Part shown: piece after piece, positions 4,994 to 52,320 of the stretch
Layout: every line of letters begins with the position of its first letter
How positions within the stretch are numbered: position 1 is the first letter of the stretch
IMG/VR virus record: IMGVR_UViG_3300025679_000009
Coordinates: 1 to 52,774 of that record
From: a virus
Taxonomy: Duplodnaviria > Caudoviricetes
Length of the DNA stretch: 52,774 bases
Direction: 5' to 3' (one strand)
Translations under genes and position numbers: made by a program
The notes under the pieces: model-generated
Database searches by the model: none
The model's input: the letters and a program-made list of their open reading frames with translations, nothing else
What the model was told of the DNA's origin: nothing

Positions 4994-5026
4994 GGCCGAA
5001 CCCTCGGGCGATTTGATTCGGTCATC

Positions 5027-5259: not shown

Positions 5260-5472
5260 ATGACGGTGCTCGATCTCGGAGAGAGGCGTGGGTCGGGGCG
5301 AACCTCGAAGGAGGAGGCGCCGCACGACCCGGACGATCAATGGCTAAGGCGGCAGGCCGCCGTCATCGTGTCACAGCTGCCGGATGATCATCGATCGGCG
5401 CTGATCGTGCTGGCCTGGGCCGCGGAAATAATCCGGTTTGTAAAGGCGGCCCCGCCCATCACGCCCGCCTAG
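5260..5472 (+). CDS. small hypothetical protein in the immunity region
   Basis: GGGAGG RBS, 70 aa, convergent with repressor. Confidence 0.55.
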   Translation: MTVLDLGERRGSGRTSKEEAPHDPDDQWLRRQAAVIVSQLPDDHRSALIVLAWAAEIIRFVKAAPPITPA

Positions 5473-5779
5473 ATTGGCGGCTCTTCTCGAGGCGATCGAT
5501 CTCAATGGCGAGCGCGTGCGGCAGGCCGGCGCGCTCGCCGAAATAGATATAATCCAGGCTCGCACCGGTTCGCCGCGCGACGGCCATCGCGCCGTCGATG
5601 CCGATCCGGTTGTCGCCGGTCTCGGCGTTATTCCAGGCCGAGATCCCGATGTCGCATAGCCGGGCGAATTCGGACTGGCTCATCTCGCGATCACGTTTCT
5701 GTAATGCGCTATAGGCTCGACGGACGAGCGCCAGGCGCTCGCCGATGGCCTTAGCGGAATCGACCCGTGGGGCTGCCAT
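5459..5779 (-). CDS. CI-like repressor (XRE HTH, no S24 peptidase domain)
   Basis: MSQSEFARLCDIGISAWNNAETG HTH, ASLDYIYFG; divergent from cro-like gene. Confidence 0.82.
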   Translation of the reverse strand: MAAPRVDSAKAIGERLALVRRAYSALQKRDREMSQSEFARLCDIGISAWNNAETGDNRIGIDGAMAVARRTGASLDYIYFGERAGLPHALAIEIDRLEKSRQSRRA

Positions 5780-5835
5780 GATGGCCGGGAGGGTTTCAAA
5801 CTCCGGACGAAGCGGCCATCGCGCAGAAAGCAAAC

Positions 5836-5864
5836 TTGACACCTTACAGCCTCGCTGTAAATCT
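5836..5864 (+). promoter_or_regulatory. PR-like promoter with third operator
   Basis: TTGACA at 5836-5841; palindrome TTACAGCCTCGCTGTAA at 5844-5860 with the same TACAG-N5-CTGTA consensus. Confidence 0.75.
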
Positions 5865-5872
5865 TTCGCGCC

Positions 5873-6103
5873 ATGAAGATTCGGCGCCTCCAAACCGTCC
5901 CCGACGTCATCGATGCGCTCGGTCCCGATCGGGTCCGTGCGCTGACTGGCAAGCGCAGCAACAACCTCACAAACTGGAAGGCCTCCGGCTTCTTCCCGCC
6001 TGAGACCTTCCTCGTGCTGACCGACGCTCTCAGGAGCCTCGGCTGTGCGGCGCCGCCTTCGCTGTGGCGAATGATCCGGCCGGCGAAGGTGCGCGCGGCC
6101 TGA
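5873..6103 (+). CDS. Cro-like protein
   Basis: VIDALG...VRALTG...LTNWK...FPP Cro/CII-like HTH; divergent from cI. Confidence 0.78.
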   Translation: MKIRRLQTVPDVIDALGPDRVRALTGKRSNNLTNWKASGFFPPETFLVLTDALRSLGCAAPPSLWRMIRPAKVRAA

Positions 6104-6247
6104 TTTGTCGGGGCTGTCAAGCGGAGAGTCGAGTCGTTTTGCGGCGCTGAACGGGGTTCTGACCCCCCTGTGAATTGGTGTGGACGCCTGTGGATTGTTC
6201 GTTGCGTGCGTCGCGTTTTGATCCCGCTCACCTCCGCGAGGCCGCGC

Positions 6248-6466
6248 ATGCTCGAGTCTACTATTGTGCACGTCGCCGCCGACGATCGCCACGAAATGGT
6301 CGCCGTGCTGTTGCCGAAGAGCTTAGTGGCGCGGCTGCGAGCCCGGTGCGATGCCGATGGCGAGCAGGTCCACGAAGTGGTGGCTGACGCGATTGATCTA
6401 CACCTCGACGCGCTCGCCGCCGGCGAAGACCTGCCGGCCGGAGCCATCGCGCGGGTGCTGTCATGA
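6248..6466 (+). CDS. ribbon-helix-helix-like hypothetical protein
   Basis: VAVLLPKSLVARLRARC...VVADAIDLHL; start uncertain. Confidence 0.5.
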   Translation: MLESTIVHVAADDRHEMVAVLLPKSLVARLRARCDADGEQVHEVVADAIDLHLDALAAGEDLPAGAIARVLS

Positions 6467-6618
6467 GGCCGCGCACGATCGAGAAATTCCCGCCGCCGCG
6501 GCCCTCCTTCGCCGGCAACGCGGTGCTGGTGCTGATCGCTTTCGCCATCATCGTCGCTGTTGCCGCGGTGCTGACACCGATCCTGCGCGACGCCTGCGCG
6601 TTCGGGTGCCCGCTGTGA
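6463..6618 (+). CDS. small membrane protein
   Basis: ATGA overlap; 51 aa with a single hydrophobic helix. Confidence 0.5.
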   Translation: MRPRTIEKFPPPRPSFAGNAVLVLIAFAIIVAVAAVLTPILRDACAFGCPL

Positions 6619-6641
6619 GCGGGGATGATCACATCCGCCGA

Positions 6642-6914
6642 ATGGCCGCGCGGGCGGCCGACCCGCATCAGTTTGCCAAGGATCAGCTCAAGGCGCTGGT
6701 CGAGCGCATCGAACGGCTCAATGAGGAGCGCAAGGAGCTGTCGAACGATGTGCGCGACGTTTACGCGGAAGCCAAGGCCACCGGCTACAGCACGCGCGCA
6801 CTCAAACATGTCATTCGCATCCGGGAGTACGACCGGGAGCACGGTGCCGACGCGCGGCGTTCGGAAGAGGCGATCATCGAAACCTATCTCGCTGCGCTGG
6901 GGATGGCGCCATGA
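6642..6914 (+). CDS. gapR: GapR-like (DUF2312) nucleoid-associated protein
   Basis: AKDQLKALVERIERLNEERKELSNDVRDVYAEAKATGY...ETYLAALGM. Confidence 0.88.
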   Translation: MAARAADPHQFAKDQLKALVERIERLNEERKELSNDVRDVYAEAKATGYSTRALKHVIRIREYDREHGADARRSEEAIIETYLAALGMAP

Positions 6915-7237
6915 GTGGCACGCACATTGCTACGCGCGGGCGCGGGCGGGACGGCTTACTCGAAACCTACATGCTGGCGCTGGGGATGCTGTCGTGAAGG
7001 CAGCCGGGCGCCAACCGTTTGCGTCGGTGCGGGCCGCGATCTGCGGCCGCCTGCAGCGGGGCCGAGGGTCGCCGCCGCAGGTCTCATCCGCTAAACGCAC
7101 CGACGTTGATCGGCCTCGCCCGGAGACGCTTTGCCTCGTCGGTGCGGGCGAGGCCGGTCGCGTACTTCTGATCCTGGTCGCGACGCGCGCCGGTCAGACG
7201 GCACAGCCTCCGTAAGGCCGCCCCAGGATGAGCTTCA

Positions 7238-7251
7238 GTTTCACGTGAAAC
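7238..7251. promoter_or_regulatory. parS-like palindrome
   Basis: Perfect GTTTCACGTGAAAC, matching the core of the bacterial chromosomal parS consensus; intergenic. Confidence 0.7.
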
Positions 7252-7266
7252 GTCGGGGGTAGAGCG

Positions 7267-7935
7267 TTGACGACGCTTGATCAATCGCGCGCGTGGCCGT
7301 TCGGCGCGCTTAAACCTTTCAGCTATGACCTTGCGATGATCGACCCGCCTTGGCCTACCGAAATGCGGTCGCCGAAAGGTGAGGCCAAAAGCTTTGCGAG
7401 ACACTACGGAGCAATGAGCTTCGAACAGATTCGCGAGCTGCCGGTCGGGCAGCTGCTCAAGCGCGACGCCGTCGTCTTCCTGTGGTGCACCTGGCCGCTG
7501 CTGCTCGATGGCGGCGACGCAAAACGCCACTTCCGCGACCATAACGCCGGGCGCTCGCGCGTCGGCGAGTGTCTGCAGCGCTGGGGCCTGCGCTACGTCA
7601 CCGGTGGCTCCTGGCACAAGCAGACGGTGACCGGCAAGACGGCCTTCGGCACCGGCTACGCGGTGCGGTCGGCCTGCGAGCCGTTCCTCATCGGCAAGCT
7701 CGGGAGGCCGAATCATAGCCGCTCAGAGCGCAATCTGATCGTCGGTCTGGCGCGCGAGCACTCGCGCAAGCCGGACGAGGCCTTCGCCTGGTGCGAGCGT
7801 TACATGGGGCCACACGCCCGCCTCGTAGAGATTTTCTCGCGCGAGAACCGTCCGTACTGGGACAGCTGGGGCTTCGAGGCCGGAAAATTCGATCCGGTGG
7901 TCTCAGAGAATGCGGCGCCGGCGGTGGCGGCATGA
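7267..7935 (+). CDS. MT-A70-family adenine methyltransferase
   Basis: IDPPW catalytic motif, FLWCT, GTGY, REHSRKPDE, EIFSRE...WG. Confidence 0.92.
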   Translation: MTTLDQSRAWPFGALKPFSYDLAMIDPPWPTEMRSPKGEAKSFARHYGAMSFEQIRELPVGQLLKRDAVVFLWCTWPLLLDGGDAKRHFRDHNAGRSRVGECLQRWGLRYVTGGSWHKQTVTGKTAFGTGYAVRSACEPFLIGKLGRPNHSRSERNLIVGLAREHSRKPDEAFAWCERYMGPHARLVEIFSRENRPYWDSWGFEAGKFDPVVSENAAPAVAA

Positions 7936-11811: not shown

Positions 11812-11893
11812 GTCAGGAATCGCCTGTTTAATTAATCGCCGGAGACGTCACGTGTCGAAGTTTCCGCCCTCCCTGTAGGGAGCAAAAGTCGAC

Positions 11894-12817
11894 ATGGGCG
11901 AGCTCGTCGATCCGCTCGCCTCGGTTAGGTCCTATCTGGCAGCCGAAAAGTCTTCCAACACGCGGCGGGCCTATGCCGCTGATTTTGCTCACTTCGCCGA
12001 CTGGTGTGGAAGAGTTTTGGAGCAGGCGCTCCCGTCTAGTCCACTGATCGTGGCGCGCTACCTGGCGCACCTGGCGGACAGCGGGCTCAAGCCTTCCACG
12101 ATCGAGCGGCGCTGCGCCGCGATCCGCTACGCACACAAAGCTGCTGGACACGAACCGCCGACCGGCGCCGAAGGCGTCAAGGCAGTGCTCCGCGGGATCC
12201 GTCGATCGAAAGGCGTCAAGCCGGTGCGCAAGGCGCCGGCGGACGCCGCGGCGATCGGCGCCATGCTCGAGCGGCTGCCGGCGACGCTCGCCGGCATCCG
12301 CGATCGCGCGCTGCTGCTGATCGGATTGTCGGCCGCGCTCAGGCGCTCTGAGCTGGTTGACTTAAAAGTCAAGGACGTCGAGCGCCGGGGCGCCGGTGTC
12401 ATCCTGCACATCCGCCGATCGAAGACGGACCAGGAGGGCCGGGGTCATCAGATCCCGGTGCCGAACGGCCGCACACTCAAGCCGGTGGCTGCGCTCGATG
12501 CCTGGCTGGCTGCATCGCAAATTTGCGATGGGCCCATTTTTCGCGAGATCGATCGCCACGGCCGCGTCGGCCAGGCGGCGCTGTCAGGGCGGTCGGTGGC
12601 GCGCATCGTCAAGCGCGCCGCGCGCGCAGCGGGACTGGATGAGCGAACCTTTTCCGGACACTCGCTGCGCGCTGGTTTTGTGACGCAGGCCCTGGCCGAT
12701 GGAGTCGACCCATTAAAGGCGATGAAGATCACGCGTCACGCGGATCCGCGCAGCCTGGCGATCTACGACCGCCGCGAGGCCGAGCTCGAGGACCACGCGG
12801 GAAAGGGCTTCCTGTGA
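11894..12817 (+). CDS. Cre-like tyrosine recombinase
   Basis: NTRRAY SAM-like domain, RDRALLL...ALRRSEL, RSKTDQ, SGHSLRAG, ITRH...IY; full R-K-H-R-H-Y set. Confidence 0.93.
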   Translation: MGELVDPLASVRSYLAAEKSSNTRRAYAADFAHFADWCGRVLEQALPSSPLIVARYLAHLADSGLKPSTIERRCAAIRYAHKAAGHEPPTGAEGVKAVLRGIRRSKGVKPVRKAPADAAAIGAMLERLPATLAGIRDRALLLIGLSAALRRSELVDLKVKDVERRGAGVILHIRRSKTDQEGRGHQIPVPNGRTLKPVAALDAWLAASQICDGPIFREIDRHGRVGQAALSGRSVARIVKRAARAAGLDERTFSGHSLRAGFVTQALADGVDPLKAMKITRHADPRSLAIYDRREAELEDHAGKGFL

Positions 12818-13008
12818 CGACGGCGCCGGCGCCAAAGGAATCGCCTCCGCCGCGGACGTCGGTCGTTCACTGCTGGGTCACGGCGCCGATTGCTGAGCTG
12901 CTCAGCAAAGAGGCTGCGCGCCGCGGCATGCATCCCGATCGCCTGGCCGCCGAGCTTCTGACCATCATTGTCGGCGACGGACTTATCTCGGCGATTGTCG
13001 AGCGCTGA
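12814..13008 (+). CDS. small RHH-like protein
   Basis: GTGA overlap; LSKEAARRGM...LAAELL. Confidence 0.5.
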   Translation: MTTAPAPKESPPPRTSVVHCWVTAPIAELLSKEAARRGMHPDRLAAELLTIIVGDGLISAIVER

Positions 13009-13013
13009 ACGCG

Positions 13014-13691
13014 ATGCTCAAAAACGCCAAGCATGAAGCTGTTTTGCAAGCCTATATTGCAAATCGTGAGCGCGTCGGGTGGAAAGCGTACAGCGCGATC
13101 TACACGAATTCGTCGCAACGCGCGTCGGAAGTCGGATGGAGCCGGCTGTTAACGCATGCTGAGTTCTCAGCACGGCTCGCCGAGCTCGAGAAGGCGGTCG
13201 TCGACAAGGTGATCGAGAAGACCGGCATCACAGTCGAGCGTGTGCTCGCCGAGCTGGCGCTGATCGGTTTCTCGAACATGCAGGATTTCGCCGAAGCTCT
13301 CATGGAGGGCGACGTCCGCGAGCTCGAGCGCGATCGCGCCGCGGCGGTGCAAGAGATCACCGTCGACACGTACATGGACGGCGCCGGCGACGATGCGCGC
13401 GAGGTCAAGCGCGTGCGGCTCAAGCTGCTCGATAAGCGTGCTGCGCTCGTCGACATCGGGCGTCATTTGAAGATGTTCGTCGATCGGCACGAGCTCACCG
13501 GCAAAGACGGCAAGCCAATTGAGACCGTCGACGCGAGCGAGGAAAAGCCGAGCGAGCTCGAGGTGGCGCGTCGCATCGCCTTCCTGCTCGAGCGCGCTGC
13601 GCGGCTGAAAGAGAAGCCCGCTGCCACCGCCAAGGCCGGCGCCAAGGCCAAGGCGAGCGCGAAGGCGAAGCCGAAGGCACAAACGAGGTAG
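13014..13691 (+). CDS. terS: terminase small subunit
   Basis: ITVERVLAELALIGFSN...KLLDKRAAL..IGRHL.MF..ELTGKDG.PI. Confidence 0.85.
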   Translation: MLKNAKHEAVLQAYIANRERVGWKAYSAIYTNSSQRASEVGWSRLLTHAEFSARLAELEKAVVDKVIEKTGITVERVLAELALIGFSNMQDFAEALMEGDVRELERDRAAAVQEITVDTYMDGAGDDAREVKRVRLKLLDKRAALVDIGRHLKMFVDRHELTGKDGKPIETVDASEEKPSELEVARRIAFLLERAARLKEKPAATAKAGAKAKASAKAKPKAQTR

Positions 13692-13694
13692 ATC

Positions 13695-14045
13695 ATGGCC
13701 AATGCGCTGAATTCGCTCGCGGTGGTGTGCCTGGACTCGCCTGGCTGCAATCCGCGTTCGGCGCCGAGCTACGTGTCGTCGCGCCTGCTGGCCGCGGCGA
13801 CCGCCGAGTCGATCGCGATCCCGGCCGGTTCGGCCTATGTGCGGCTCGCCGGCACGGCGGACTTCTTCTACGTGTTCGGCGCGGGCCCGGCGACCGTGCC
13901 CGGCGACGTCGACGACGGCACCGCCTGCGAACTGGCGAAGCAGCAGGGCGATGCGGAGTGGATCATCATCCCGCCCGCCGCGACCACGATGAGCGTCATC
14001 AGCTCGGGCACGCCGATCGTGACGGCGAGCTTCTACAAGACCTGA
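13695..14045 (+). CDS. hypothetical beta-rich protein (possible virion accessory)
   Basis: RBS GAGG, good ORF. Confidence 0.6.
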   Translation: MANALNSLAVVCLDSPGCNPRSAPSYVSSRLLAAATAESIAIPAGSAYVRLAGTADFFYVFGAGPATVPGDVDDGTACELAKQQGDAEWIIIPPAATTMSVISSGTPIVTASFYKT

Positions 14046-14107
14046 CCTAACGTCCGCGCCGCGCGGATCGCCGCGGCTCCCCCACATCTGATCTCGAGGA
14101 GACTGCG

Positions 14108-14464
14108 ATGGCTCTGCAAAATATTGCGGACAAGGTCCTGCTTTGGCTTCATGGCCGCCGGCTCGGCATCACCGGCGACGGCCAGACCGGCGGTCAGTCG
14201 GCGCTCGTGCTCGATGGCGTGCCAATCGCCTGCTCGCGCGCGGACATCGTTCTGACCACGCTCGGCCATAACGGCGCCGGCGCCGTTGCGGTCGCCGGCG
14301 TCCAGATCGGCGACAACGTGCTCAACGTCACGAACCTGACGACTCCCGGCGACGTCACGGCGAGCTTCGAGTCGACGGTTACCGTCGCCGGCCAGGTGCA
14401 GCAGAGCGCGGCGACGAACCTTTCGGCTGCGCAGCTGATGTTCCAGGTCCAGCCGCAGAGCTGA
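14108..14464 (+). CDS. hypothetical protein (possible head decoration/fibre)
   Basis: RBS GAGGAG; beta-strand-rich. Confidence 0.6.
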   Translation: MALQNIADKVLLWLHGRRLGITGDGQTGGQSALVLDGVPIACSRADIVLTTLGHNGAGAVAVAGVQIGDNVLNVTNLTTPGDVTASFESTVTVAGQVQQSAATNLSAAQLMFQVQPQS

Positions 14465-14623
14465 TCGCGCGCATCGATTAGCGCACACGGGCGTCCGCTC
14501 GAGATCAGCCGGAGAATGGCCCTCGCGCCTGAAGGTCGGGATGCAGGTAACGCGCGCTCCAGGCGTGCTCATCGCCTGTCGGCCCCGGCGGCGGCATCAA
14601 TCGTTTCAACCTGAGGAGAGAAC

Positions 14624-14986
14624 ATGAGCCTGGTAGCTAAAGTCGAGCAGCTCGTCGCCGAGACCGGCGACGGTCTGCTGAACGCGGTGAAGCATCTCGC
14701 CGAGCACCTCGAGCACATCGGCGCCGGCGGTGTCGACGTCTCGAAGCTCGAGGCCGAGATCAAGGCAACGTTCGAGGCGAAGACCGAACGACTGTTTGCG
14801 TCGCTGGAGGAGAAGGTCAACACCGGGATGGCGGCGTTGGCCAGCGGTGTCCAGGATATGCTGGCTCGGATCGCTGCGCTCGAGCACGCCGCGGCCGCGG
14901 CTCCGCCGGCGGCACAGCAGCAGCCCGCGGCGCAGCCGGCCGAGCAGTCGACCGGAGCGGCGCAATCGGGCGGCAATCCGACCTGA
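14624..14986 (+). CDS. coiled-coil hypothetical protein
   Basis: RBS GAGGAG; heptad pattern and A/P/Q tail. Confidence 0.6.
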   Translation: MSLVAKVEQLVAETGDGLLNAVKHLAEHLEHIGAGGVDVSKLEAEIKATFEAKTERLFASLEEKVNTGMAALASGVQDMLARIAALEHAAAAAPPAAQQQPAAQPAEQSTGAAQSGGNPT

Positions 14987-14991
14987 TCTGA

Positions 14992-16551
14992 ATGAGCGCG
15001 CTCGAGGAGTTGCTCGCGCGCGTCAAGGCACTCCCTGCGAAAGAACGCGAGGCGATCGAACGCGAAGCAATCGCGGCGACCGCCTCGCATCGCTGGGTGC
15101 CAAACGTCGGGCCGCAGACCGCGGCCTATTTCTGCGAGGCGGACGAGCTGCTCTACGGCGGCGAGGCCGGCGGCGGGAAGAGCGACCTGCTGCTAGGCCT
15201 GGCGCTCAACGAGCATCAGCGCGCCCGCGTTCTGCGCCGCATCGACGCCGACGCCGGCGATCTCGGCAATCGGCTGGTGGAGATCCTCGGCAGTAACGCC
15301 GGCTACCGATCGACGCCGCCGACGTGGCGGCAGGGACAGAAATTCGTCGAGCTGCGCGGTTGCCAGCTCGAGCGCGACAAGCAGCGCTTCAAGGGCAAGG
15401 CGCGCGACTTCATCGGCTACGACGAGCTCGCCGACTTCCTCGAGAGCCAGTTCGTCTTCATCAACACCTGGAACAGGTCGACAGACCCGAGCCAGCGCTG
15501 CCGCGTTGTGGGTGCCACCAACGGCCCGACGACGGCGGAAGGGCAATGGATCCTCCGGCGCTGGGGCCCTTGGCTCGATCCCAAGCATCCGCGGCCTGCC
15601 GAGGACGGCGAGCTGCGCTGGTTTCTGCAAATCGGTGGCCAGGACAGCGAGGTCGACGGGCCCGGCCCGCACGACGTCGGCGGCCGAATGGTGCGGGCGA
15701 CGTCGCGCACGTTCATCCGCTCGCGTCTGTCGGACAATCCCGACCTGGCGCGCACCGATTACGCGACCAAGCTTGACGGCCTGCCGGAGGAGTTGCGGCG
15801 CGTCTACCGCGACGGCGACTTCACGGTCGGCCTGAAGGACAGTGATTATCAGGTCATTCCCACGGCCTGGGTCGAAGCGGCGATGCAGCGGTGGTCTGAC
15901 AAGCCGCCGGCGCGTTTGGCGATGAGCGCGGTCGCGGTCGACGTTGCCCCCGGCGGCGGTGACAACCGCGTCATCGGCTATCGCTATGGCGGCTGGGTCG
16001 GAACGCTCGACTCGGAAAAGCAGGTCGACCGCACGGGCCGCATCACGGCCGCGAAGGTCGTCGAGGTGCGGCGTGATCGCTGTCCGGTCATCGTCGATGT
16101 CGGCGGCGGCTGGGGCGGCGACACGGTCATCGCGCTGAAGGACAACGGCATAGAGAACGTCGTCGCGTTCAACGGCGTGGTGACGTCGACGTCGAAGACG
16201 CGCGACGGCAAGCTCGGCTTCTACAATAAGCGCGCCGAGTCCTACTGGCGCCTGCGCGAGGAGCTCGATCCGTCGCAGGAGGGCGGCTCGGCGATCGCGC
16301 TGCCGCCCGATCAGGAGCTCAAGAGCGATCTGACCGCCGCGCATTGGAAGCTGACGACGCGCGGCATTCTGCTCAACGACAAGAAAGAGATCGTCGAGCT
16401 GCTCGGTCGATCGCCCGACAAAGGCGACACGGTGGCGATGCTGGTCTCTGAAGGCAACCGCGCAATGGCGCGGGCGGCGCGTGCGCAGCAGCAGGGCGGC
16501 CGGCCGCAGACGGCGAATGTCGGTTACTCGCATTTGAAGAACCGGCGATGA
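14992..16551 (+). CDS. terL: terminase large subunit
   Basis: PNVGPQ, YGGEAGGGKS Walker A, IGYDE Walker B, ATN motif, VDVAPGGGD nuclease, RSPDKGD. Confidence 0.95.
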   Translation: MSALEELLARVKALPAKEREAIEREAIAATASHRWVPNVGPQTAAYFCEADELLYGGEAGGGKSDLLLGLALNEHQRARVLRRIDADAGDLGNRLVEILGSNAGYRSTPPTWRQGQKFVELRGCQLERDKQRFKGKARDFIGYDELADFLESQFVFINTWNRSTDPSQRCRVVGATNGPTTAEGQWILRRWGPWLDPKHPRPAEDGELRWFLQIGGQDSEVDGPGPHDVGGRMVRATSRTFIRSRLSDNPDLARTDYATKLDGLPEELRRVYRDGDFTVGLKDSDYQVIPTAWVEAAMQRWSDKPPARLAMSAVAVDVAPGGGDNRVIGYRYGGWVGTLDSEKQVDRTGRITAAKVVEVRRDRCPVIVDVGGGWGGDTVIALKDNGIENVVAFNGVVTSTSKTRDGKLGFYNKRAESYWRLREELDPSQEGGSAIALPPDQELKSDLTAAHWKLTTRGILLNDKKEIVELLGRSPDKGDTVAMLVSEGNRAMARAARAQQQGGRPQTANVGYSHLKNRR

Positions 16552-44764: not shown

Positions 44765-45157
44765 TCAGCTCGAGGCGCCGGCCGCCAGTCGGTCGCGGAG
44801 CGCAAAACCCATCAGCGGCCAGATCTGGCGGACGGCATCCTCGTACGCCAGCTTACGGCCGAGCTCGGCGTTGAAATTTTCTGGGGCGGCCGGAGCGCTC
44901 TTGCCGATGATGGTGAAGCCGTTCTTCATCACGAGGAGGCAGATCGAGAAGCACTTGAGGGATTCTACCACCTTGCGTGTTGGCGGCGAGCCATCTCGGC
45001 CATCGCCGGTGCTCCAGGCTCCCAGCGCGGTGAAGACGTGCTTGGGAGATAGGTCAAAGCGGGCCGCGATCGCCTCCTCGATGTCACTGAGCTTGACGCG
45101 CGGTGCGATGGCAACGGTCGCCGCTGCCGCATCGGATGCCTGGAGGCTCGACGTCAT
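44765..45157 (-). CDS. N4 Gp49/Sf6 gp66-family protein (Acb4-like)
   Basis: ICLLVMKNGFTIIGKSA...ENFNAELGRKLAYEDA..QIWPLMGF.L. Confidence 0.85.
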   Translation of the reverse strand: MTSSLQASDAAAATVAIAPRVKLSDIEEAIAARFDLSPKHVFTALGAWSTGDGRDGSPPTRKVVESLKCFSICLLVMKNGFTIIGKSAPAAPENFNAELGRKLAYEDAVRQIWPLMGFALRDRLAAGASS

Positions 45158-45168
45158 GGTGGCGTTCC

Positions 45169-45579
45169 TCAGTAGGTGACCCAGTGGCGAGGCCGCTTCG
45201 GCTCGCGGCCGCACGACGCGTCATGGTAGGCGGCGCCGAAGGTGTCCTGACAGCGGTTTGAGGCTATCGGACCGACGATGTGCGGCTGCTCGCGGTGCTT
45301 GCGCTTCGGCACGAGCTGCTGCTCGCCGCCCGGCTCGCCGACGGCGATGAGTTCCTCGCGCGTGTGATCGTCCTCCATCACGCGGTCGAGGTAGCCCCGC
45401 ATGCGGCTGTTCTCGCTCTCGGCCGCGGCGAGGCGCTCTTTGACCTCGTCCAGGTTGGCGCGCAACGCTCCGGCGCGATCGTCGGCACGCTTGCACTCCC
45501 TGCGGGAGGCTTCGAGATCGGACCGGAGTGCCGCGACCTCGGCTTCGAGCTGCTCGCGCGATTTGTGGGGCGGTTTCAA
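45169..45579 (-). CDS. coiled-coil hypothetical protein
   Basis: TTGA-coupled start; heptad region. Confidence 0.55.
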   Translation of the reverse strand: MKPPHKSREQLEAEVAALRSDLEASRRECKRADDRAGALRANLDEVKERLAAAESENSRMRGYLDRVMEDDHTREELIAVGEPGGEQQLVPKRKHREQPHIVGPIASNRCQDTFGAAYHDASCGREPKRPRHWVTY

Positions 45580-45881
45580 GCGCCGGCCCCGAGCTTCTGC
45601 TCGAGCTGCTCGGTCTTCGCCGCCTGGCCCTTCTGGTAGGGCATCCACTCGGCGCAGCGCTTGCCTGGCTCGCGCGCCTGATCGGCCGCGAGCATCGTGA
45701 CGTTGCCCTCGGCGAAGACATGCCCGTCGCTGTCGGAGACCGTGAGATTGACGAGCGTCGGATCGAAGACATGGGCGATGGTTGCGGCGAGCGGCTTGCC
45801 CGTGTCGTGGTGCGCGCCGGCGAAGTGCTGGTCCGGCCAAAACAGGACGACTCGGCCGACGGTGGGCTCGATCGATGCCAT
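45576..45881 (-). CDS. conserved phage hypothetical protein
   Basis: PTVGRVVLF...AATIAHV...VNLTV...WMPYQ. Confidence 0.7.
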   Translation of the reverse strand: MASIEPTVGRVVLFWPDQHFAGAHHDTGKPLAATIAHVFDPTLVNLTVSDSDGHVFAEGNVTMLAADQAREPGKRCAEWMPYQKGQAAKTEQLEQKLGAGA

Positions 45882-46261
45882 CAGAGCACCTTCACCGTCA
45901 CGCGGCCGCCGGAGGCCTTGCCCCACTGCGGCTCGATCTTGATCAGTCCCGAGCTGACGAGCTTCTTTCGCTCCGCCGGCTTCAGCACTTGCCAGGCTTC
46001 GGTGACAACCTGGGGTACGTCGCCCTTAAATTCGGCCGCGTGCGGGGGTGCGACGGCGATAAAGCCGCGCGCGCCGAAGTCCTCCTTGAAGCTCTCGCCG
46101 CTGTCCATCGCGGACAGCTTCAGGTCGGCATCGAGCTTCGCGATCTCGGCGTAGTCCTTACCGAGCCGGATCTCGATATCGAGCCGCTTCTCCGCCGTGG
46201 CGCGCCGCGCCTTCAGGATCTTCGGGTCGGGTTTGGCCTTACGGCTGGTGGCGGTGGCCAT
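45881..46261 (-). CDS. hypothetical protein
   Basis: GGGAG RBS; coupled ORF. Confidence 0.6.
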   Translation of the reverse strand: MATATSRKAKPDPKILKARRATAEKRLDIEIRLGKDYAEIAKLDADLKLSAMDSGESFKEDFGARGFIAVAPPHAAEFKGDVPQVVTEAWQVLKPAERKKLVSSGLIKIEPQWGKASGGRVTVKVL

Positions 46262-46322
46262 GCGGTGCTCCCGGTTCGGCGCCGGGAGAATTGCAGTACA
46301 GGGTTAAAAGTTCCTGACAGTC

Positions 46323-46592
46323 CTATGATGTCGCTGGTTTTTCGGCTCCACCGCGGGTCATCAGGTCCGGCAGATCGGGGAAATGTAGGCCGCACGGCGC
46401 CCGCATGTTGCCGTAGCGGGTGCAGCCGGCCTCGGCGGCCAGGTGCTTGCGCAGGTCGGGAAGGGCGATCTCCGGCCCGTACGCGGCCACCAGGCGCGCC
46501 TTGCTGACCTTGGCGCGGCGGCCGCAGGCATCGCACGCGACGTCGAGCTGCTCGGCCGGATACTCTGCGAGGGTGTAGGAGCCGTTGGGCAT
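46323..46592 (-). CDS. small Zn-binding hypothetical protein
   Basis: CDACGR...L...YG...C...C. Confidence 0.6.
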   Translation of the reverse strand: MPNGSYTLAEYPAEQLDVACDACGRRAKVSKARLVAAYGPEIALPDLRKHLAAEAGCTRYGNMRAPCGLHFPDLPDLMTRGGAEKPATS

Positions 46593-46598
46593 CGAGCC

Positions 46599-46802
46599 CT
46601 AATAGCTCATCCGCTGCTTGATGGTCAGCTCGTTCTCCTGCAGCCATTGCAGGGACTTCTTCGCCGCCTCGAGGCGCGCGACCTGGTAGTCCGCGATCGA
46701 CTGCCGCAGTTTTCCGCTCGAGACCAGGCGCTGGTAGACGCTCTGCCGCTGCTCGAGCTCGCGGTCGATCTCCTCAATTTGTTGGGCGAGCGAGATCTTC
46801 AT
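46599..46802 (-). CDS. hypothetical protein
   Basis: MKISLAQQIEEIDREL.R...Y; ATGA-coupled. Confidence 0.65.
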   Translation of the reverse strand: MKISLAQQIEEIDRELEQRQSVYQRLVSSGKLRQSIADYQVARLEAAKKSLQWLQENELTIKQRMSY

Positions 46803-47404
46803 TCTGGCAATCTGGGTTTGCCGGCGATCGGGACCATCTTGCCCGGGTAGGTGCCCGCCTCGAGGCATAGCACTCCGCCTGCGACATTGGCTGGAGCGCT
46901 TGCCTCGCCATCGTCCACGACGGCGACAACGATCGCTGTCTTCTGCGGCCAGTGCCAGAAGCCCTGGAAGCCGCGCGCGGGCACCGGCGCGTCGAAGGGC
47001 TGCAGATCGGTGAGGGGCCACGCCCAGTTGAAGTCGCCGCGATCGCTGTCGTGCGGCAGACCGGCGAAGATCGTGCCGGCATTACGTGGCTTGCCGAGCA
47101 CCGCGGTGCCGAGGCCGGCGGCGAGCGGCAGGCCTCGATACTTGTGCGCCGCGCGCACGCGCTCGAGCAGCTGCCGGGCGACGTCGACGACGAGGCCGGT
47201 CATGTCGTCGTCGGCGCCGAGCCGGCGCAGCAGGTCCTCGACCTCGGCCGGCTTGATTGGCCGCGCGCCGGCGTGGATCACGACACGCTCGCCGATCGCC
47301 GGCGCGTTGGCGTACTGCAGGAAGCTCTTCGGCCTGAACTCGAAGGGCTTGGCGCCGACCATGATCAGCGACGCCCACGGCTGCCAGATGGTGATCGCCT
47401 TCAT
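46799..47404 (-). CDS. ASCH-domain protein
   Basis: MKAITIWQPWASLI..GAK.FE.R...IHAG...PVPARG.QGFW.W. Confidence 0.88.
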   Translation of the reverse strand: MKAITIWQPWASLIMVGAKPFEFRPKSFLQYANAPAIGERVVIHAGARPIKPAEVEDLLRRLGADDDMTGLVVDVARQLLERVRAAHKYRGLPLAAGLGTAVLGKPRNAGTIFAGLPHDSDRGDFNWAWPLTDLQPFDAPVPARGFQGFWHWPQKTAIVVAVVDDGEASAPANVAGGVLCLEAGTYPGKMVPIAGKPRLPE

Positions 47405-49203
47405 GCTGCCAGCCTCTCGCTCTCCACGATCCAGTCCTGCAGCTGCACGAGGCCCTTCGAGGGATAGTCGACCAGGTCCATGCCCTTCAGTTCGGAGAGG
47501 CGGTCTTTGATGTTGCTGCCGTCCGGAGCCCAATTTAGGTGTTGCGCGAGGACGGCGCGCTCAACGGGACCGCGCGGGAAGGCGAGCAGCGCGTCGAACA
47601 GTGTGGTCTGCGGTCCCGTGAGCACCGCGCGGATCCCGTCAATGACGGAGCCGCTCATGTCGGGATCCGGCGCGATCGCCGCGCCCTCGTCGGTGAAGCT
47701 CACAAAGCCCTCGCGCGGATAAAACACGAGGCCTTTGCCCTTCAGCTCGGACAAGCGGTCCTTCAGGTTGCTGCCGGTCGGCTTCCAGCGGCAGATGGCC
47801 GCGACCTGCCGGCGGTTGGGTTGGTCGTTGCCCATGTTCTTCCACCAAGCCAGCGCGCGCAGGAGCGCGATCTGCGGGTTCGTCAGGACGCCGGTGATCT
47901 CGTCGGCGACGGCGATCGGGGTAGCCGGCTTGGCATAGGACGGTGTTTGGGGCACGACGCTTGGCATGGAGCGGGGCACAACAGCGGCCGGCGCCGGCTG
48001 ATACTCGATCGCGTCCTGCAGCTTCGGACGGGCCCGGGCGGATTGCTCCGCTGCGGTGAAAAACGCATCGAGCGGCCGCAGCTTCTCGCGCAGGTCCTTG
48101 AAGAACTGCAGCTGCGCGTCCTTGATCTGCTTCTCGGCCGCGGCCGAGAGCTTCTTGCGCGCCTGCTCGAAGCCGCGCTTCTCCGCTGCCTCGAGTGCGG
48201 GCTTGTCGGCGACCGGCTTGGCGGGGGCCTTGGCTGCCGCCGATTGCACCTGGCGCTCGAGCTTCGCCCGCTCTGCCTTTAGCCCGGCGATCTCGGCCCG
48301 CAATTTCTTCGGATCGTTTGCCTTCGCTTCCTCTTCGATCGCCGCGAGCTGGCCTTTGAGCGCACCGACGTCGACGGGTTTGAGCGCCGCCGTGCGCTTC
48401 TGCTTCTCGCCGCGCTTCGGTGTGCGCGAGGAATCGAACGTTTCCTTTTGCGGAAACTTCGCGGTGCCGAGCACGCCGCGGCCGGGCAGCCACACGACGC
48501 CCTGGCCGACTTCCATCGCCGGCAGGGCGTCCTTGATCTCGCGGCCCTGCGCCTTGTCCGCCTGGCCCTCGATCCAGCTGTCGAGCGCGTCGCGATCCTG
48601 CGATGACGTGAGTTTGAACGCGATCAGGCCGTCGACCTGGCTGAGCACGTTTTTGTTGAGCACGGCCGGGCGCTGCGAGATCAGCCACGGGATGAAGCCT
48701 TTGACGCGGCCGCGGCGGACGATGTTCTCCATGTGGCCGAGCAGCGTTTCGTCGCCGCCGGCGGGCTTCTGCGGCGCGAACAGATCGGCCTCGTCGACGA
48801 TCAGATGGAACGGCTCGCCGGTGGCCTTGCGATAGAGCGTGTCGAGGAAGGCCGTCATGAAGCGGCGCTCGGCGGATTTGGAGCCGAGCTCGCGCAGGTC
48901 GATGATGCAGCTCTCCGCCATCGTCGCCGCCGTCTCGCCGATCAGTGCGCCGGCGTGCTCGGTCAACGGCAAGTCGCCGCGCGGGCCGCCGAAGATGACG
49001 ACGTTGAACGGCGAGGCGTGCTTGCCGTCGGCGGTGAGGCGCAGGCCCCACCACACCCCAAGCGGATCGACGATGACGACGCGCGCCTTCTTGCTCAGGA
49101 GGCGCTCGACCGCGACGCCGGCGTTGTAGGTCTTGCCGCTTCCTGAGGTGCCTAGGAAGCCGAGACGATCGTCCAGCGCTGCACTCGGGATGGGGTGGCT
49201 CAC
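47401..49203 (-). CDS. HerA/DUF87-like ATPase with C-terminal tandem winged helices
   Basis: GTSGSGKT Walker A, IVDP.G, LIVDEAD Walker B, RRGR, SQRPA; GTG start coupled to upstream stop. Confidence 0.85.
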   Translation of the reverse strand: MSHPIPSAALDDRLGFLGTSGSGKTYNAGVAVERLLSKKARVVIVDPLGVWWGLRLTADGKHASPFNVVIFGGPRGDLPLTEHAGALIGETAATMAESCIIDLRELGSKSAERRFMTAFLDTLYRKATGEPFHLIVDEADLFAPQKPAGGDETLLGHMENIVRRGRVKGFIPWLISQRPAVLNKNVLSQVDGLIAFKLTSSQDRDALDSWIEGQADKAQGREIKDALPAMEVGQGVVWLPGRGVLGTAKFPQKETFDSSRTPKRGEKQKRTAALKPVDVGALKGQLAAIEEEAKANDPKKLRAEIAGLKAERAKLERQVQSAAAKAPAKPVADKPALEAAEKRGFEQARKKLSAAAEKQIKDAQLQFFKDLREKLRPLDAFFTAAEQSARARPKLQDAIEYQPAPAAVVPRSMPSVVPQTPSYAKPATPIAVADEITGVLTNPQIALLRALAWWKNMGNDQPNRRQVAAICRWKPTGSNLKDRLSELKGKGLVFYPREGFVSFTDEGAAIAPDPDMSGSVIDGIRAVLTGPQTTLFDALLAFPRGPVERAVLAQHLNWAPDGSNIKDRLSELKGMDLVDYPSKGLVQLQDWIVESERLAA

Positions 49204-50873
49204 GTGCGCACCGCCTCGCGATAATGTTTGGGACTGATGCCGTAGCTCGCTGCGATCACCTCCGCCGGCGTGTCGCCGCGCATGGCCCCGAGGTGGAATT
49301 TCCGCCTGGTGCCGTCCGGCTCGAGCGATCCGTTGAGCACTTCGACGACTCGTAGGCGATCGCCGGCGACGTCGAGATCGAGCAGTCGCCGCGGCTGGCC
49401 GTGTAGCTCGTCGGCGGCGATCACCTTCGCGTGCCGCTCGGCGAGATATCGTTCGAAGCCGAAGACCTCGAGCATCATGCGGCGAAGTTCGGCATTGCGC
49501 TCCCCCTCGATCGCGGAGGGCGTCAGCCTTGCGCGCTCGCGGATGATCCATTCGTGCGAGCGCGGGATCTGCATTCCGTGCCAGAAATACAGGTCCCAGC
49601 CGTCGCTATAGGCGATCGCGGGGCCGCTCTCGGCGTGCAGACGTCCCGCGGCGTTGCGCTTCAGCAGTCGCGGTCGGTCAGACACCATCGCGTAGTCGGT
49701 GTTGAGCATGTACGGGCCGCCCTGGCTGTGGGCGACCTCGTAGGCCGCGAGTTCGTCGGCAAGGTCGATCTCGAGGCCGCAGACGTCGCGGAAGAACGTC
49801 GTCCAGGATGCCCACCAACACCACAGATTGCCGCCCGAGTCGCCGGCATAGGCCGCGCACCGCAGGAGGAAGAGCGCGTCCTGATCGACCGCGCTGCGAA
49901 CCGCGCTGCGAACCGCGCTGCCAACCGCGCTGTCGACCGCGCTGCGAACCGCGCTGCGAACCGCGCTGCGAACCGCGCTGCGAACCGCGCTGCCAACCGC
50001 GCTGCCAACCGCGCTGCCAACCGCGCTGCGAACCGCGCTGCGAACCGCGCTGCCAACCGCGCTGCGAACCGCGCTGCCAACCGCGCTGTCGACCGCGCTG
50101 CCAACCGCGCTGCCAACCGCGCTGCGAACCGCGCTGCCAACCGCGCTGTCGACCGCGCTGCCAACCGCGCTGCCAACCGCGCTGTCGACCGCGCTGCGAA
50201 CCGCGCTGTCGACCGCGCTGCCAACCGCGCTGTCGACCGCGCTGCCAACCGCGCTGTCGACCGCGCTGCGAACCGCGCTGTCGACCGCGCTGCGAACCGC
50301 GCTGCGAACCGCGCTGTCGACCGCGCTGCGAACCGCGCTGCCAACCGCGCTGTCGACCGCGCTGCGAACCGCGCTGTCGACCGCGCTGTCGACCGCGCTG
50401 TCGACCGCGCTGCCAACCGCGCTGTCGACCGCGCTGTCGACCGCGCTGCCAACCGCGCTGTCGACCGCGCTGCCAACCGCGCTGCGAACCGCGCTGTCGA
50501 CCGCGCTGCGAACCGCGCTGTCGACCGCGCTGCCAACCGCGCTGTCGACCGCGCTGTCGACCGCGCTGTCGACCGCGCTGCGAACCGCGCTGCCAACCGC
50601 GCTGCGAGCAGGGAAGCCGTGCCGCAGCGCGTGGATGGCGCCACCGGCGACGCCGAATGCGATGCGTAGCGTGAACGGCGACGGCACGAAGATCACTGCC
50701 TTTGGTGGCCGCAGATTGGCCCGCTGATACATGATGCGGATCGCAGCATCGACCTCCTTCCGTTCTTTTGCCGACATCGGATCGGTCGAGAGACCGATCC
50801 TGATCCATTTGTCGCGCCACTCGGGCATGCGCGCGGCGTGTGCCGGCGTGAGGCTGTCAATCCGTTTCACCAT
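49200..50873 (-). CDS. DUF6745-like protein with 60 SAV[D/G/R] repeats
   Basis: C-terminal SDRP...GRLH...GPAI.YSDGW..Y.WHG...I..E.NAELRR; N-terminal W...GLST. Confidence 0.8.
   Translation of the reverse strand: MVKRIDSLTPAHAARMPEWRDKWIRIGLSTDPMSAKERKEVDAAIRIMYQRANLRPPKAVIFVPSPFTLRIAFGVAGGAIHALRHGFPARSAVGSAVRSAVDSAVDSAVDSAVGSAVDSAVRSAVDSAVRSAVGSAVDSAVGSAVDSAVDSAVGSAVDSAVDSAVDSAVRSAVDSAVGSAVRSAVDSAVRSAVRSAVDSAVRSAVDSAVGSAVDSAVGSAVDSAVRSAVDSAVGSAVGSAVDSAVGSAVRSAVGSAVGSAVDSAVGSAVRSAVGSAVRSAVRSAVGSAVGSAVGSAVRSAVRSAVRSAVRSAVDSAVGSAVRSAVRSAVDQDALFLLRCAAYAGDSGGNLWCWWASWTTFFRDVCGLEIDLADELAAYEVAHSQGGPYMLNTDYAMVSDRPRLLKRNAAGRLHAESGPAIAYSDGWDLYFWHGMQIPRSHEWIIRERARLTPSAIEGERNAELRRMMLEVFGFERYLAERHAKVIAADELHGQPRRLLDLDVAGDRLRVVEVLNGSLEPDGTRRKFHLGAMRGDTPAEVIAASYGISPKHYREAVRT
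49884..50603 (-). repeat. coding tandem array, 60 x 12 bp, three alleles
   Basis: AGCGCGGTCGAC (D, 22; last copy ends GAT), AGCGCGGTTGGC (G, 19), AGCGCGGTTCGC (R, 19). Confidence 0.97.
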
Positions 50874-50904
50874 GGCTCCTGTCCCTCTGTTCTTGTGGTG
50901 GTGA

Positions 50905-51405
50905 TCAGTCGGCGACGACGCGTTCTTCGGCGCCGGCGCTCTCGATCTGTCGGCCGATGAGATAATTGCCCGGCGGTACGCGGATGCTGTTGTGCTCCTG
51001 GTGCGCGATCGTCATTGGACCGTCCTCGACGACGAGGCAGCCAACGACAAGATCGGCGCGCGTCAGAAGCCCGCGGCTCTGCATCTGAGCCGCGACGTTT
51101 GGATCGCGATAGAGCCGCGCGTGACCGATGCTGGCCTTGGCGCCGCCAAGCTTCTTGCGCAGCGACGTATCGCGAACCTGCAGCACCGGATCGGCCTGCA
51201 CATCGGTCTTGCGGAAGCGCCGCTCGCGCGGCAGCGCGATGTGGTGGTGATGGCCAGTCAGCTCGCCTTCCTGCAGGATGAGTTTGTTGTCGACCGGTTG
51301 GATCTCGTCGGTGGTAGACACCTTGATGCCGGCAGGGATAGGGACGATCGAGACGTCACCTTGGAACGCCTGGCCCTTGGTGGGATCGAAATCATGAACG
51401 CGCAT
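50905..51405 (-). CDS. His-rich partner protein of the DUF6745-like gene
   Basis: QGDV...LILQEGELTGHHH...HQEH..I.VPPG.Y...RQ.E. Confidence 0.75.
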   Translation of the reverse strand: MRVHDFDPTKGQAFQGDVSIVPIPAGIKVSTTDEIQPVDNKLILQEGELTGHHHHIALPRERRFRKTDVQADPVLQVRDTSLRKKLGGAKASIGHARLYRDPNVAAQMQSRGLLTRADLVVGCLVVEDGPMTIAHQEHNSIRVPPGNYLIGRQIESAGAEERVVAD

Positions 51406-51420: not shown

Positions 51421-51750
51421 TCAATTCTCGGGGGGGGGGGTATACTCGCCTTCACGCAACCTACGGTTAATTCGATCTTCGGTGGCTTGGCGCTCCGCGC
51501 GCCGCAACATCAGCGACTCGGCCCGCAGCGCACCCTCCCGCGTAAGCGAGTAGAAGGGGCCTTCGGGTCGGCCGCGCTGGATGTTTTGCCGGTGCCAGAT
51601 GTTCAGCAGGCCGAGGCGGCAGAGGCCGCCTGCGAGTTCGCGCACGCCGGAGAGCAAAGTGACCGGCATTGATGCACCGCCGCAACGGAGCAGGTGAACG
51701 ACAATGTCGATTTCTTGCCGCGTGAGCGGCCGGTCGGTCGTGCGCGTCAC
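51421..51750 (-). CDS. wHTH-like hypothetical protein
   Basis: LCRLGLL...FYSLTREG; GGAG RBS, GTG start. Confidence 0.55.
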   Translation of the reverse strand: MTRTTDRPLTRQEIDIVVHLLRCGGASMPVTLLSGVRELAGGLCRLGLLNIWHRQNIQRGRPEGPFYSLTREGALRAESLMLRRAERQATEDRINRRLREGEYTPPPEN

Positions 51751-51763
51751 GCGGCACTCCCGA

Positions 51764-51878
51764 TGTCAGAATCACACCTCGCTTTTACCCGGGACTTGCC
51801 CCGGTTGCGCCGGGGTTTGTCAGAATCGCAGGTAGCAATATCAATGGGTTGATGCAGGTTCGAATCCTGCTGCCCGGA
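51764..51878 (+). other. relic att arm: two direct repeats, IHF consensus and a tRNA T-arm fragment
   Basis: TGTCAGAATC at 51764 and 51818; TATCAATGGGTTG at 51839-51851; GCAGG-TTCGAAT-CCTGC at 51854-51870. Confidence 0.55.
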
Positions 51879-52172
51879 CGCCTTCATCCGGTGCCTCCTT
51901 GCACTGCTCGCGCGATTGCTGAGAGCGTCGCGCGTCGATCGAGACGCCCCGGATGATCCGCTCGAACCGCGGCGTAGATCGTCACGGTGAGCGCACCGAC
52001 GGCGACCTCGAAAGCGGCGCCCCCGCGTACGCGCACTCCCAGGCGTTTCACTGCCGCCAGGAACGCGTCATGCGTCAGGTCGCGTTTGGCGCGCAGCCGA
52101 TGCTCGGGCGCTGGCAGGGCGAACAGCGTCAGCTGACGCGGCGATCGACGACGGCCTTGCGCTCGAGATCGT

Positions 52173-52234: not shown

Positions 52235-52268
52235 GTTGCTAGAAAAACCTTGCGAAGACCCCCGATGA

Positions 52269-52320
52269 CGCTGCCCTGTCACGGCAGAGGCCGCGGGTTC
52301 GAGTCCCGTCGCTCCCGCCA
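52269..52320 (+). repeat. attR core (52-bp duplicate of tRNA-Asp 3' part)
   Basis: CGCTGCCCTGTCACGG...CGCTCCCGCCA identical to 78-129. Confidence 0.95.

Follow-up and report, generated by a model that had tools for sequence, protein, structure and literature searches.

The att-proximal accessory arm of a tRNA-Asp prophage: a widespread His-motif/DUF6745 gene pair beside a HerA-like ATPase with winged-helix-like repeats and an ASCH-like gene

Archaeal HerA (with NurA) and the bacterial Sir2-HerA and DUF4297-HerA systems are built on a RecA-like core with Walker A and Walker B motifs, and HerA proper has an N-terminal HAS-barrel region of ~180 residues. FtsK/SpoIIIE translocases carry a C-terminal winged-helix gamma domain, the Streptomyces plasmid protein TraB being comparable in layout, and the ASCH proteins include human ASC-1, Thermus TTHA0113, and EOLA1, with the N-terminal motif xxTIWQPWASLIxxGxKxxExR. 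PMC2884959 describes mycobacteriophage Tweety gp54 (also Che8 gp57 and PMC gp51) as a dispensable protein of unknown function with a 12-nt/tetrapeptide repeat in its centre, the repeat number being 48, 26, and 15 across three close phages and the variation being limited to two residue positions. Here, we describe a minus-strand gene cluster in the metagenome-derived IMG/VR virus record IMGVR_UViG_3300025679_000009 (Duplodnaviria; Caudoviricetes; 52.8 kb), the whole 52,774 nucleotides of which are referred to as the window. In this cluster a gene for a small His-motif protein stands next to genes for a DUF6745 protein with a tetrapeptide tract, a HerA-like ATPase, and an ASCH-like protein.

The original prediction had read these genes as one multi-protein defence or counter-defence module of a prophage. 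The region is probably better described as a mosaic, leftward-transcribed, att-proximal accessory arm with three independently assorting units, namely the His-motif/DUF6745 pair, the ATPase, and the ASCH-like gene. Genes of a prophage accessory arm that are tightly packed and overlap by 4 nt should not on that account be taken for a system, and anchored neighbourhood counts split this one. The part worth an experiment is the His-motif/DUF6745 pair, which is very widespread, from phages to actinomycete chromosomes, and offers a testable predicted interface as well as a new genomic lead, the STM4011-4015 neighbourhood. No relative of solved fold was found for the pair, and a literature search found no paper mentioning the term "DUF6745". 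The HerA-like ATPase with its winged-helix-like repeats represents a second unstudied family, common to alphaproteobacterial phages and plasmid-like elements.

Gene order and anchored neighbourhoods

Gene models were set by inspection of start codons and of the sequence upstream of them. The His-motif protein (166 aa; 50905-51405, minus strand, as are all genes of the cluster) starts at an ATG with GAGGAG ahead. A 31-bp spacer (50874-50904), with GGGACAGGAG upstream of the next start codon, separates it from the DUF6745 protein (557 aa; 49200-50873), which consists of a conserved N-terminal part, a tract of SAV-x units (49884-50603; residues 91-330), and the C-terminal PF20530 domain. The ATPase gene (600 aa; 47401-49203) starts at a GTG whose GTGA overlaps the DUF6745 stop codon, in agreement with the aligned N-termini of 14 homologues. 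The ASCH-like gene (201 aa; 46799-47404) starts at ATG 47404 within an ATGA overlap with the ATPase gene, again in agreement with homologue N-termini, and the gene for a 67-aa protein (46599-46802) starts at ATG 46802 within a further ATGA overlap. The five genes, the spacer, and the three 4-nt overlaps are all where the original prediction had placed them. Such overlaps are ordinary packing in phage operons and do not show a functional unit.

Each gene was taken in turn as the anchor, and the six-frame open reading frames (ORFs) of the fetched loci were searched with the four family profiles at E ≤ 1e-5. In the 63 ATPase-anchored genome loci neither the His-motif gene nor the DUF6745 gene was found, and an ASCH-like gene was found in 3; the 72 ATPase-anchored viral loci gave 1, 2, and 5, respectively. 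Viral loci anchored on the ASCH-like gene (best 80 of 434) contained the His-motif gene once, the DUF6745 gene once, and the ATPase gene within 6 kb in 9 cases. By contrast, all 25 loci anchored on the His-motif gene have the DUF6745 gene adjoining it, as judged by profile hidden Markov models, while the ATPase gene is present in 2 and the ASCH-like gene in 1 of them. When only loci whose anchor is flanked by 2 kb or more on each side are kept, the ATPase genome set (26 of 63) has no His-motif gene, no DUF6745 gene, and 2 ASCH-like genes; the ATPase viral set (51 of 72) has 0, 1, and 5; the ASCH-like viral set (56 of 80) has neither member of the pair and 8 ATPase genes; and the His-motif set (10 of 24) has the DUF6745 gene in 10/10 and neither of the other two genes.

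The reciprocal search gave the same picture for the pair. At least 531 DUF6745-encoding genome stretches were confirmed, and in 74 of the best 80 of these a His-like ORF (E ≤ 0.01) lies directly upstream on the same strand, including loci of Actinomadura, Streptomyces, Dactylosporangium, and Nocardia. In 5 of the 6 loci with no such ORF the DUF6745 match is within ~430 nt of the contig start. An ATPase-profile match occurs in only 2 of these 80 loci, at the loose threshold of E ≤ 0.01. From the 25/25 and 74/80 counts, the His-motif and DUF6745 genes are therefore obligately paired across phyla, whereas each of the other two assorts independently. The linkage proposed by the original prediction is thus real for the pair and does not extend to the ATPase and ASCH-like genes.

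A rival reading holds that all four proteins, with the 67-aa protein, are one prophage defence or counter-defence system whose stoichiometry is set by translational coupling. It can draw on the shared strand, the 31-bp spacer, and the three overlaps, on the presence of the pair and the ATPase together in three phage records (the window, L065, and L068, the last also with the ASCH-like gene), and on the match of the ATPase core to PADLOC HerA models (best E = 7e-17; residues 125-237). That match is partial, and beyond it no PADLOC defence model fits the region: the His-motif and ASCH-like proteins have no PADLOC match, and a REase_II match to the DUF6745 protein (residues 169-230) was rejected as compositional, lying inside the repeat tract. 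The scores against the NCBIfam anti-phage HerA models (31.7 bits for HerA_antiphage and 23.7 bits for the other) are far below their cut-offs of 800 and 850. None of the 63 ATPase genome loci has the pair, and in the viral ones the His-motif gene is absent from 71/72 and the DUF6745 gene from 70/72; the ATPase in turn is absent from 23/25 His-anchored loci. The gene order is permuted in L068, and L065 lacks both the ASCH-like and the 67-aa genes. A single system of this kind is very unlikely in our view, and the ATPase and ASCH-like genes do occur independently of the rest, which runs counter to the module first proposed; each unit by itself may still have a defence or counter-defence role. 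Several points nevertheless tell against the mosaic arm. The loci were fetched by short conserved peptide patterns and in part are best-scoring subsets (80 of 434; 80 of at least 531), and contig ends cut many of them, as the flank counts above indicate. One viral contig, fetched twice (L068/L091), has all four genes in ~5 kb, in the order ATPase, ASCH-like gene, homologue of the first gene of the window cluster, His-motif gene, DUF6745 gene, and L065 keeps the His-motif, DUF6745, and ATPase genes together; recurrent co-location is therefore not zero. In phage MW202482, whose ATPase homologue is 35% identical, a "yqfb-like" (ASCH-type) gene lies two genes after the ATPase homologue. It was missed by the ASCH-like profile and is not matched to the ASCH-like protein by BLASTP, so a broader link between the ATPase and PUA-like genes could be under-counted.

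The same phage gene is among the points for an ATPase/ASCH-like unit of two genes, separate from the pair, in which a DNA motor would work with a PUA-like protein that reads or processes modified nucleic acid. The two genes share an ATGA overlap in the window, the ATGA junction is retained in L065 despite a deletion, and 18 fetched loci have both on one strand, among them contigs fetched twice (L068/L091, L090/L202, and L111/L178). In these 18 loci, however, the ASCH-like gene follows the ATPase gene as often as it precedes it (9 each), and the gaps range from 25 to 3819 bp; the anchored counts (3/63 and 5/72 from the ATPase side, 9/80 from the other) are low, and the ATPase of L065 is intact with no ASCH-like gene beside it. 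We regard such a unit as improbable. Less improbable, if still doubtful, is that the ATPase is a housekeeping protein of phage DNA transactions (an origin- or site-binding initiator, a translocase, or an early-arm recombination motor) rather than a conflict gene, which would be compatible with the mosaic arm. Its larger neighbours in 14 phage loci include RecT/RecE/Erf-like, DnaB-like, ParB-like, methyltransferase, HNH, and integrase genes, it carries two winged-helix-like domains, and no replicative helicase, primase, or polymerase was seen among the subset of window ORFs scanned (35 by PHROGs and 19 by Pfam). Against such a role, the ATPase gene is absent from the distant, backbone-sharing phages L070 and L072, it also occurs on elements with their own RepA/RepC and ParA, and it is multi-copy in single metagenome-assembled genomes (MAGs) of Acetobacteraceae.

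The His-motif/DUF6745 pair

In the His-motif protein, TGHHHH is found at residues 50-55 and HQEH at residues 135-138, confirming the motifs from which a metal site had been suspected. An alignment of 30 sequences shows G51, H52, H54, H135, E137, and H138 to be invariant; the His residues are therefore not a chance feature. The invariant blocks are QGD (15-17), QEGExxGHxH (45-54), HxEH (135-138), GRQxE (151-155), and a C-terminal ERxVxD. The protein has no match in Pfam, NCBIfam, or PADLOC and belongs with phrog_27831, a family of unknown function. There are 329 close homologues of ~166 aa, and the profile matches 1340 representative clusters at E ≤ 0.001, 124 at 1e-10, and 40 at 1e-30, among them a short form of ~105-125 aa that has no variable middle. 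The AlphaFold model is mostly beta, with a predicted local distance difference test (pLDDT) score of 80 and a predicted template modelling (pTM) score of 0.72. Foldseek returned no PDB match to it at E ≤ 0.001, and a wide VIA comparison gave a best Z of 3.4 with none at Z ≥ 5; its sole match in BFVD is an uncharacterised phage protein (E = 4.5e-4). The invariant His and Glu residues point to a metal site, and the protein is probably a small metal-binding beta protein. In locus L081 (7341-8366), an HNH endonuclease (phrog_99) is encoded immediately ahead of the His-motif gene, in one open frame with it, and may be a homing-endonuclease insertion at the pair.

The DUF6745 protein matches PF20530 over residues 378-554 with 121.4 bits (cut-off 27), and its C-terminal part alone scores 123.7 bits; it is also a member of phrog_31813. 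Its relatives include the "DUF6745 domain-containing protein" of Hansschlegelia zhihuaiae, gene 38 of the Mycobacterium prophage prophiGD102-1, and proteins of the Microcystis phage Ma-LMM01 group. These have in common with the window copy the C-terminal domain, the upstream partner, and the site of the tetrapeptide tract, and all are annotated as hypothetical or by the DUF only. In the annotated phages with the domain (an M. abscessus prophage, an uncultured Caudoviricetes record, and the Microcystis Ma-LMM01 group) the label is always "hypothetical protein". The window copy differs in having one of the longer tracts in the analysis and in adjoining attR instead of lying inside a replication module, whereas the actinomycete copies mostly have no tract and lie beside STM4011-4015 genes. 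The family profile finds nothing in PDB below E = 0.8. Foldseek returned no PDB match at E ≤ 0.001 for the whole model (the C-terminal domain was not searched alone), and the best VIA Z scores are 5.7 in the wide comparison, mostly on the helical hairpin described below, and 3.6 on the list from Foldseek. NCBIfam MSCRAMM matches were rejected as repeat artefacts.

The tract is made up of just three types of 12-nt unit, in which nucleotides 1-8 never vary: the D-type unit is AGCGCGGTCGAC and the G and R types are AGCGCGGTT(G/C)GC. The fourth position is D in 22, G in 19, and R in 19 of the 60 perfect SAV-x units. The silent third base of the Val codon and the next residue go together without exception (22 C for 22 Asp), which fits copying of whole units and not point mutation. 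The closest relative, L065, is ~90% identical in the flanks and has 10 units at this site compared with 60 here; elsewhere among the relatives this site is occupied by DQLx, SVWx, GLxD, SSGx, or DAAT/SAAT units or, in some, has no tract. The 10-unit protein was modelled with a pLDDT of 88.7, and its tract consists of two helices, residues 90-109 and 111-128, with block pLDDT values of 63-71. We consider that it probably forms an antiparallel two-helix hairpin, and if it does, each of the two helices of a 60-unit tract would be ~120 residues and ~18 nm long. The nearest published analogue of the tract is that of Tweety gp54, which shares only the repeat principle, the flanking domains being different. 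Membership of gp54 in the family was rejected, as hmmsearch with the DUF6745 and His-motif profiles gave no match to gp54 or the upstream gp53 at E ≤ 10.

The two proteins probably bind each other, judging from co-folding. The L065 pair, 90% identical to that of the window, gave an interface score (ipSAE) of 0.76 (runs of 0.75, 0.77, and 0.76), while the highest of three controls scored 0.00; the runs have at least 84% of contacts in common and the partner pLDDT is at least 71. Among solved complexes 58 of 80 reached the mark used, as did 2 of 110 mismatched pairs; these counts hold only roughly here because own alignments were used. The original prediction had called for co-folding of pairs, and this result speaks for binding. 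The predicted interface is formed by the C-terminal tail and last sheet of the DUF6745 protein (residues 307-357 in L065) and by residues 1-21, 112-119, 137-141, and 151-158 of the His-motif protein, and it overlaps invariant columns on both proteins.

The genomic setting of the pair varies. In other phages it follows a DNA polymerase gene (L075 and L076) or a methyltransferase gene (L089) and sits among exonuclease, single-stranded DNA-binding protein, primase/helicase, and methyltransferase genes, and in Actinomycetota it is chromosomal. In 48 of the 80 DUF6745-anchored loci, at least two of the families STM4011 (radical SAM), STM4012 (radical SAM), STM4014 (ATP-grasp), and STM4015 (leucine-rich repeat) lie within 5 kb of the pair, the family names being taken from one representative per BLAST cluster. 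The arrangement of the pair and the STM genes differs between loci from several actinomycete orders (L250-L320), for example L256:6457-7350, L317:8369-9766, L278:8717-9781, and L311:1957-2946. A literature search on the STM4011-4015 locus tags found only incidental mentions.

As to mechanism, the His-motif protein would dock on the DUF6745 protein at its last beta-sheet and conserved C-terminal tail, and the hairpin would change in length by gain or loss of 12-nt units and vary at its exposed fourth position (D/G/R). The heterodimer might then be a dispensable early factor at the interface of phage-host conflict or DNA metabolism, with the hairpin as a length-tunable, variable surface; this is a guess, held tentatively and in good part inferred. 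Two points weigh against this picture. Neither model has a relative of solved fold, and the mechanistic parts are therefore inferred, and the count of 60 units comes from a 720-bp perfect repeat that may be mis-assembled in a metagenome-derived record. We would give only a small chance to a bolder version, in which the heterodimer is the core of a widespread, undescribed conflict device, with a metal-dependent subunit clamped to a scaffold whose helical hairpin slippage of 12-nt units would lengthen, shorten, and resurface; the pair may in that case belong to or regulate the uncharacterised STM system of the actinomycete cell, with phages having captured it to mimic or block that system.

The ATPase with winged-helix-like repeats and the ASCH-like gene

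The ATPase has its Walker A motif at residues 17-24 and its Walker B motif (DEAD) at residues 137-140. It passes the DUF87 cut-off (28.2 bits; cut-off 23.2) and is below that of Pfam HerA_C (17.2 bits; cut-off 22) and far below that of NCBIfam helicase_HerA (40.7 bits; cut-off 970). All its matches among PDB sequences are HerA-type (9x1l, 9c1m, 8xau, 8wiv, and 4d2i), the best with E = 7e-8 over residues ~125-237. Residues 14-61 align to residues 181-229 of 9x1l_A; with Walker A at residue 17, compared with ~181 in 9x1l, the N-terminal barrel of HerA is therefore absent. The HerA label of the original prediction accordingly survives at the level of the HerA/FtsK superfamily, while neither the HAS barrel nor the HerA-specific cut-offs bear it out. 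No FtsK_SpoIIIE match was found in Pfam, and phrog_1358 was matched only at E = 0.0034. The label "terminase large subunit" attached to phrog_2666 was not adopted, the phage having normal TerS and TerL genes at 12897-16551.

All 15 aligned family members share one layout, which runs from the core through a conserved TFDSSRTPKRGE motif and a variable linker, coiled-coil and Pro-rich, to two repeats of ~70 aa. In the window the repeats lie at 47425-47898 (47686-47898 and 47425-47646, minus strand). The repeat-unit profile matches almost only winged-helix regulators in PDB (ArsR/MarR/AsnC/ScpB-type), all weakly (E = 0.002-1), and Pfam matches to single family members in the repeats are of helix-turn-helix/MarR types. 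The ATPase differs from HerA in having two C-terminal winged-helix-like domains in place of the barrel and in having no nuclease or Sir2 partner conserved nearby. A ring-ATPase core followed by one or more sequence-reading winged-helix domains is the arrangement of FtsK/SpoIIIE and TraB that the ATPase resembles, and the frequent position of the gene near tyrosine recombinases is a further point of likeness; unlike FtsK/SpoIIIE, the ATPase has no membrane segments, two winged-helix-like repeats instead of one winged helix, and a long coiled-coil linker.

No neighbour family is common to the 63 ATPase-anchored genome loci, in which the neighbours are highly variable, and no effector partner gene is conserved beside the ATPase there, unlike in Sir2-HerA, DUF4297-HerA, and MADS. 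In Acetobacteraceae MAGs its neighbours include tyrosine integrase, ParA-type, RepA_C, RP-C, PIN, and SLT genes. In alphaproteobacterial phages and plasmid-like elements the ATPase gene stands alone, and the best-supported description of its product is a partner-less, DNA-binding ring ATPase of mobile elements. Most likely the ring would bind specific DNA through its winged helices and translocate or remodel DNA; in phages its gene sits in the recombination/replication arm, plasmid-like elements carry it too, and no partner is conserved. The ATPase may serve replication or recombination, maintenance of the element, or exclusion. A literature search on HerA, prophage, winged helix, and FtsK found nothing relevant.

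Some further observations concern the wider ATPase family. In L016, L017, L020, L021, L027, L045, and L062, which are Acetobacteraceae and related MAGs, a resolvase-like N-terminus (MLIGY..RV..) precedes the ATPase homologue in one continuous open frame. At least four ATPase copies occur in each of several MAGs, beside integrase, ParA, and RepA genes, which suggests a family of small integrative or plasmid elements. In L175, two HerA-like ATPase genes (4115-6004 and 6001-7773) stand in tandem with a 4-nt overlap, and in the upstream one a D5-like regulator domain (phrog_323) takes the place of the winged-helix pair.

The ASCH-like protein has its core at residues 1-155, with an N-terminal MKAITIWQPWASLI motif like that of the ASCH proteins introduced above, from which the family differs in its own invariant DSDR and NWAWP motifs. 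It has no Pfam match, including ASCH (PF04266), even at E ≤ 1, and none of the 120 homologues listed has a recorded Pfam ASCH domain; the protein matches phrog_3193, of unknown function. The family profile retrieves ASCH-type chains (ASC-1, TTHA0113, EOLA1) as 10 of the 12 best PDB matches, all of them weak (E = 0.017-0.2) and confined to the first ~60 residues. The ASCH label of the original prediction finds no footing in Pfam and rests on this weak profile match, led by the E of 0.017. E. coli YqfB is a further ASCH domain protein. With 644 homologues of ~158 aa and 434 viral loci, the gene is a very common phage family, here called ASCH-like (PUA-like). A literature search on ASCH, phage, and anti-defense found nothing relevant.

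Most of 33 aligned homologues end near residue 158, and the window copy has a 45-residue C-terminal extension (46799-46936), because of which it overlaps the 67-aa gene. The GC content at third codon positions (GC3) is 0.70 in the extension compared with 0.93 in the core. The 67-aa gene looks coding (GC3 0.90; GC content at second positions, GC2, 0.31), and its product is coiled-coil-like and matches phrog_19667 (E = 3e-5); no relative of it was found in any fetched locus. In L065, ~960 bp are deleted, so that the start codon of the ASCH-like gene now leads in frame into the 3' half of the 89-aa gene, with the ATGA junction kept. The ASCH-like and 67-aa genes are therefore both dispensable in this lineage. 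The deletion yields a small chimeric ORF (L065:3455-3730, compared with window 46240-47440).

Prophage setting and the rest of the cluster

A tRNA-Asp gene lies at 53-129, and its 3' part (78-129) is repeated exactly over 52 nt at 52269-52320 (plus strand), the putative attR, ~0.5 kb upstream of the cluster. Both att sites are thus present and the record is a prophage. The earlier view that these are uncharacterised accessory genes of a prophage holds. The plus strand encodes a GapR-like protein, an MT-A70 methyltransferase, a tyrosine recombinase, TerS, TerL, portal, major head, tail tubular, internal virion, and fibre proteins, and an endolysin. By its gene content it is a temperate, podovirus-like prophage of ~52 kb in tRNA-Asp, and the structural, lysis, and regulator genes together with the att repeat put the minus-strand cluster at its right end. 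An Rfam scan gave no match at its family's gathering score, and a promoter scan gave no sites, with terminator-like sites at chance level.

The genes for the GapR-like DNA-binding protein (PF10073) and then the MT-A70 methyltransferase occupy 6327-7935 (plus strand) in the early rightward arm. The sole recognizable tyrosine recombinase lies in the middle of the prophage (11879-12817, plus strand), just ahead of TerS. Adjoining attL is a 448-aa ORF (495-1841, minus strand) with no match in Pfam, PHROGs, NCBIfam, or PDB sequences. Between attR and the cluster, ARAGORN calls a 91-nt "tRNA-Phe" at 51789-51879 (plus strand); Rfam finds no tRNA there, reporting only the attR fragment at 52252-52312, and the call is probably false.

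The cluster runs from 51750 to 44765, adjoining attR, and is longer than had been stated. Its first gene (51421-51750, minus strand; 109 aa) has no family match; in 5 of 25 related loci a relative of it immediately precedes the His-motif gene. Beyond the 67-aa gene, the remainder (44765-46592, minus strand) comprises genes for 89-aa, 126-aa, and 101-aa (phrog_2293) proteins, a coiled-coil ORF, and a PF13876 gene. The 126-aa, 101-aa, and gp49 genes are a conserved backbone downstream of the pair in the relatives L065, L070, and L072. The last gene of the cluster (44765-45214, minus strand) belongs to the N4 gp49/Sf6 gp66 family (PF13876), and its DNA-level relatives in the Pseudomonas phages P7869 and vB_PaeS-D14C are labelled "anti-CRISPR protein", by annotation only.

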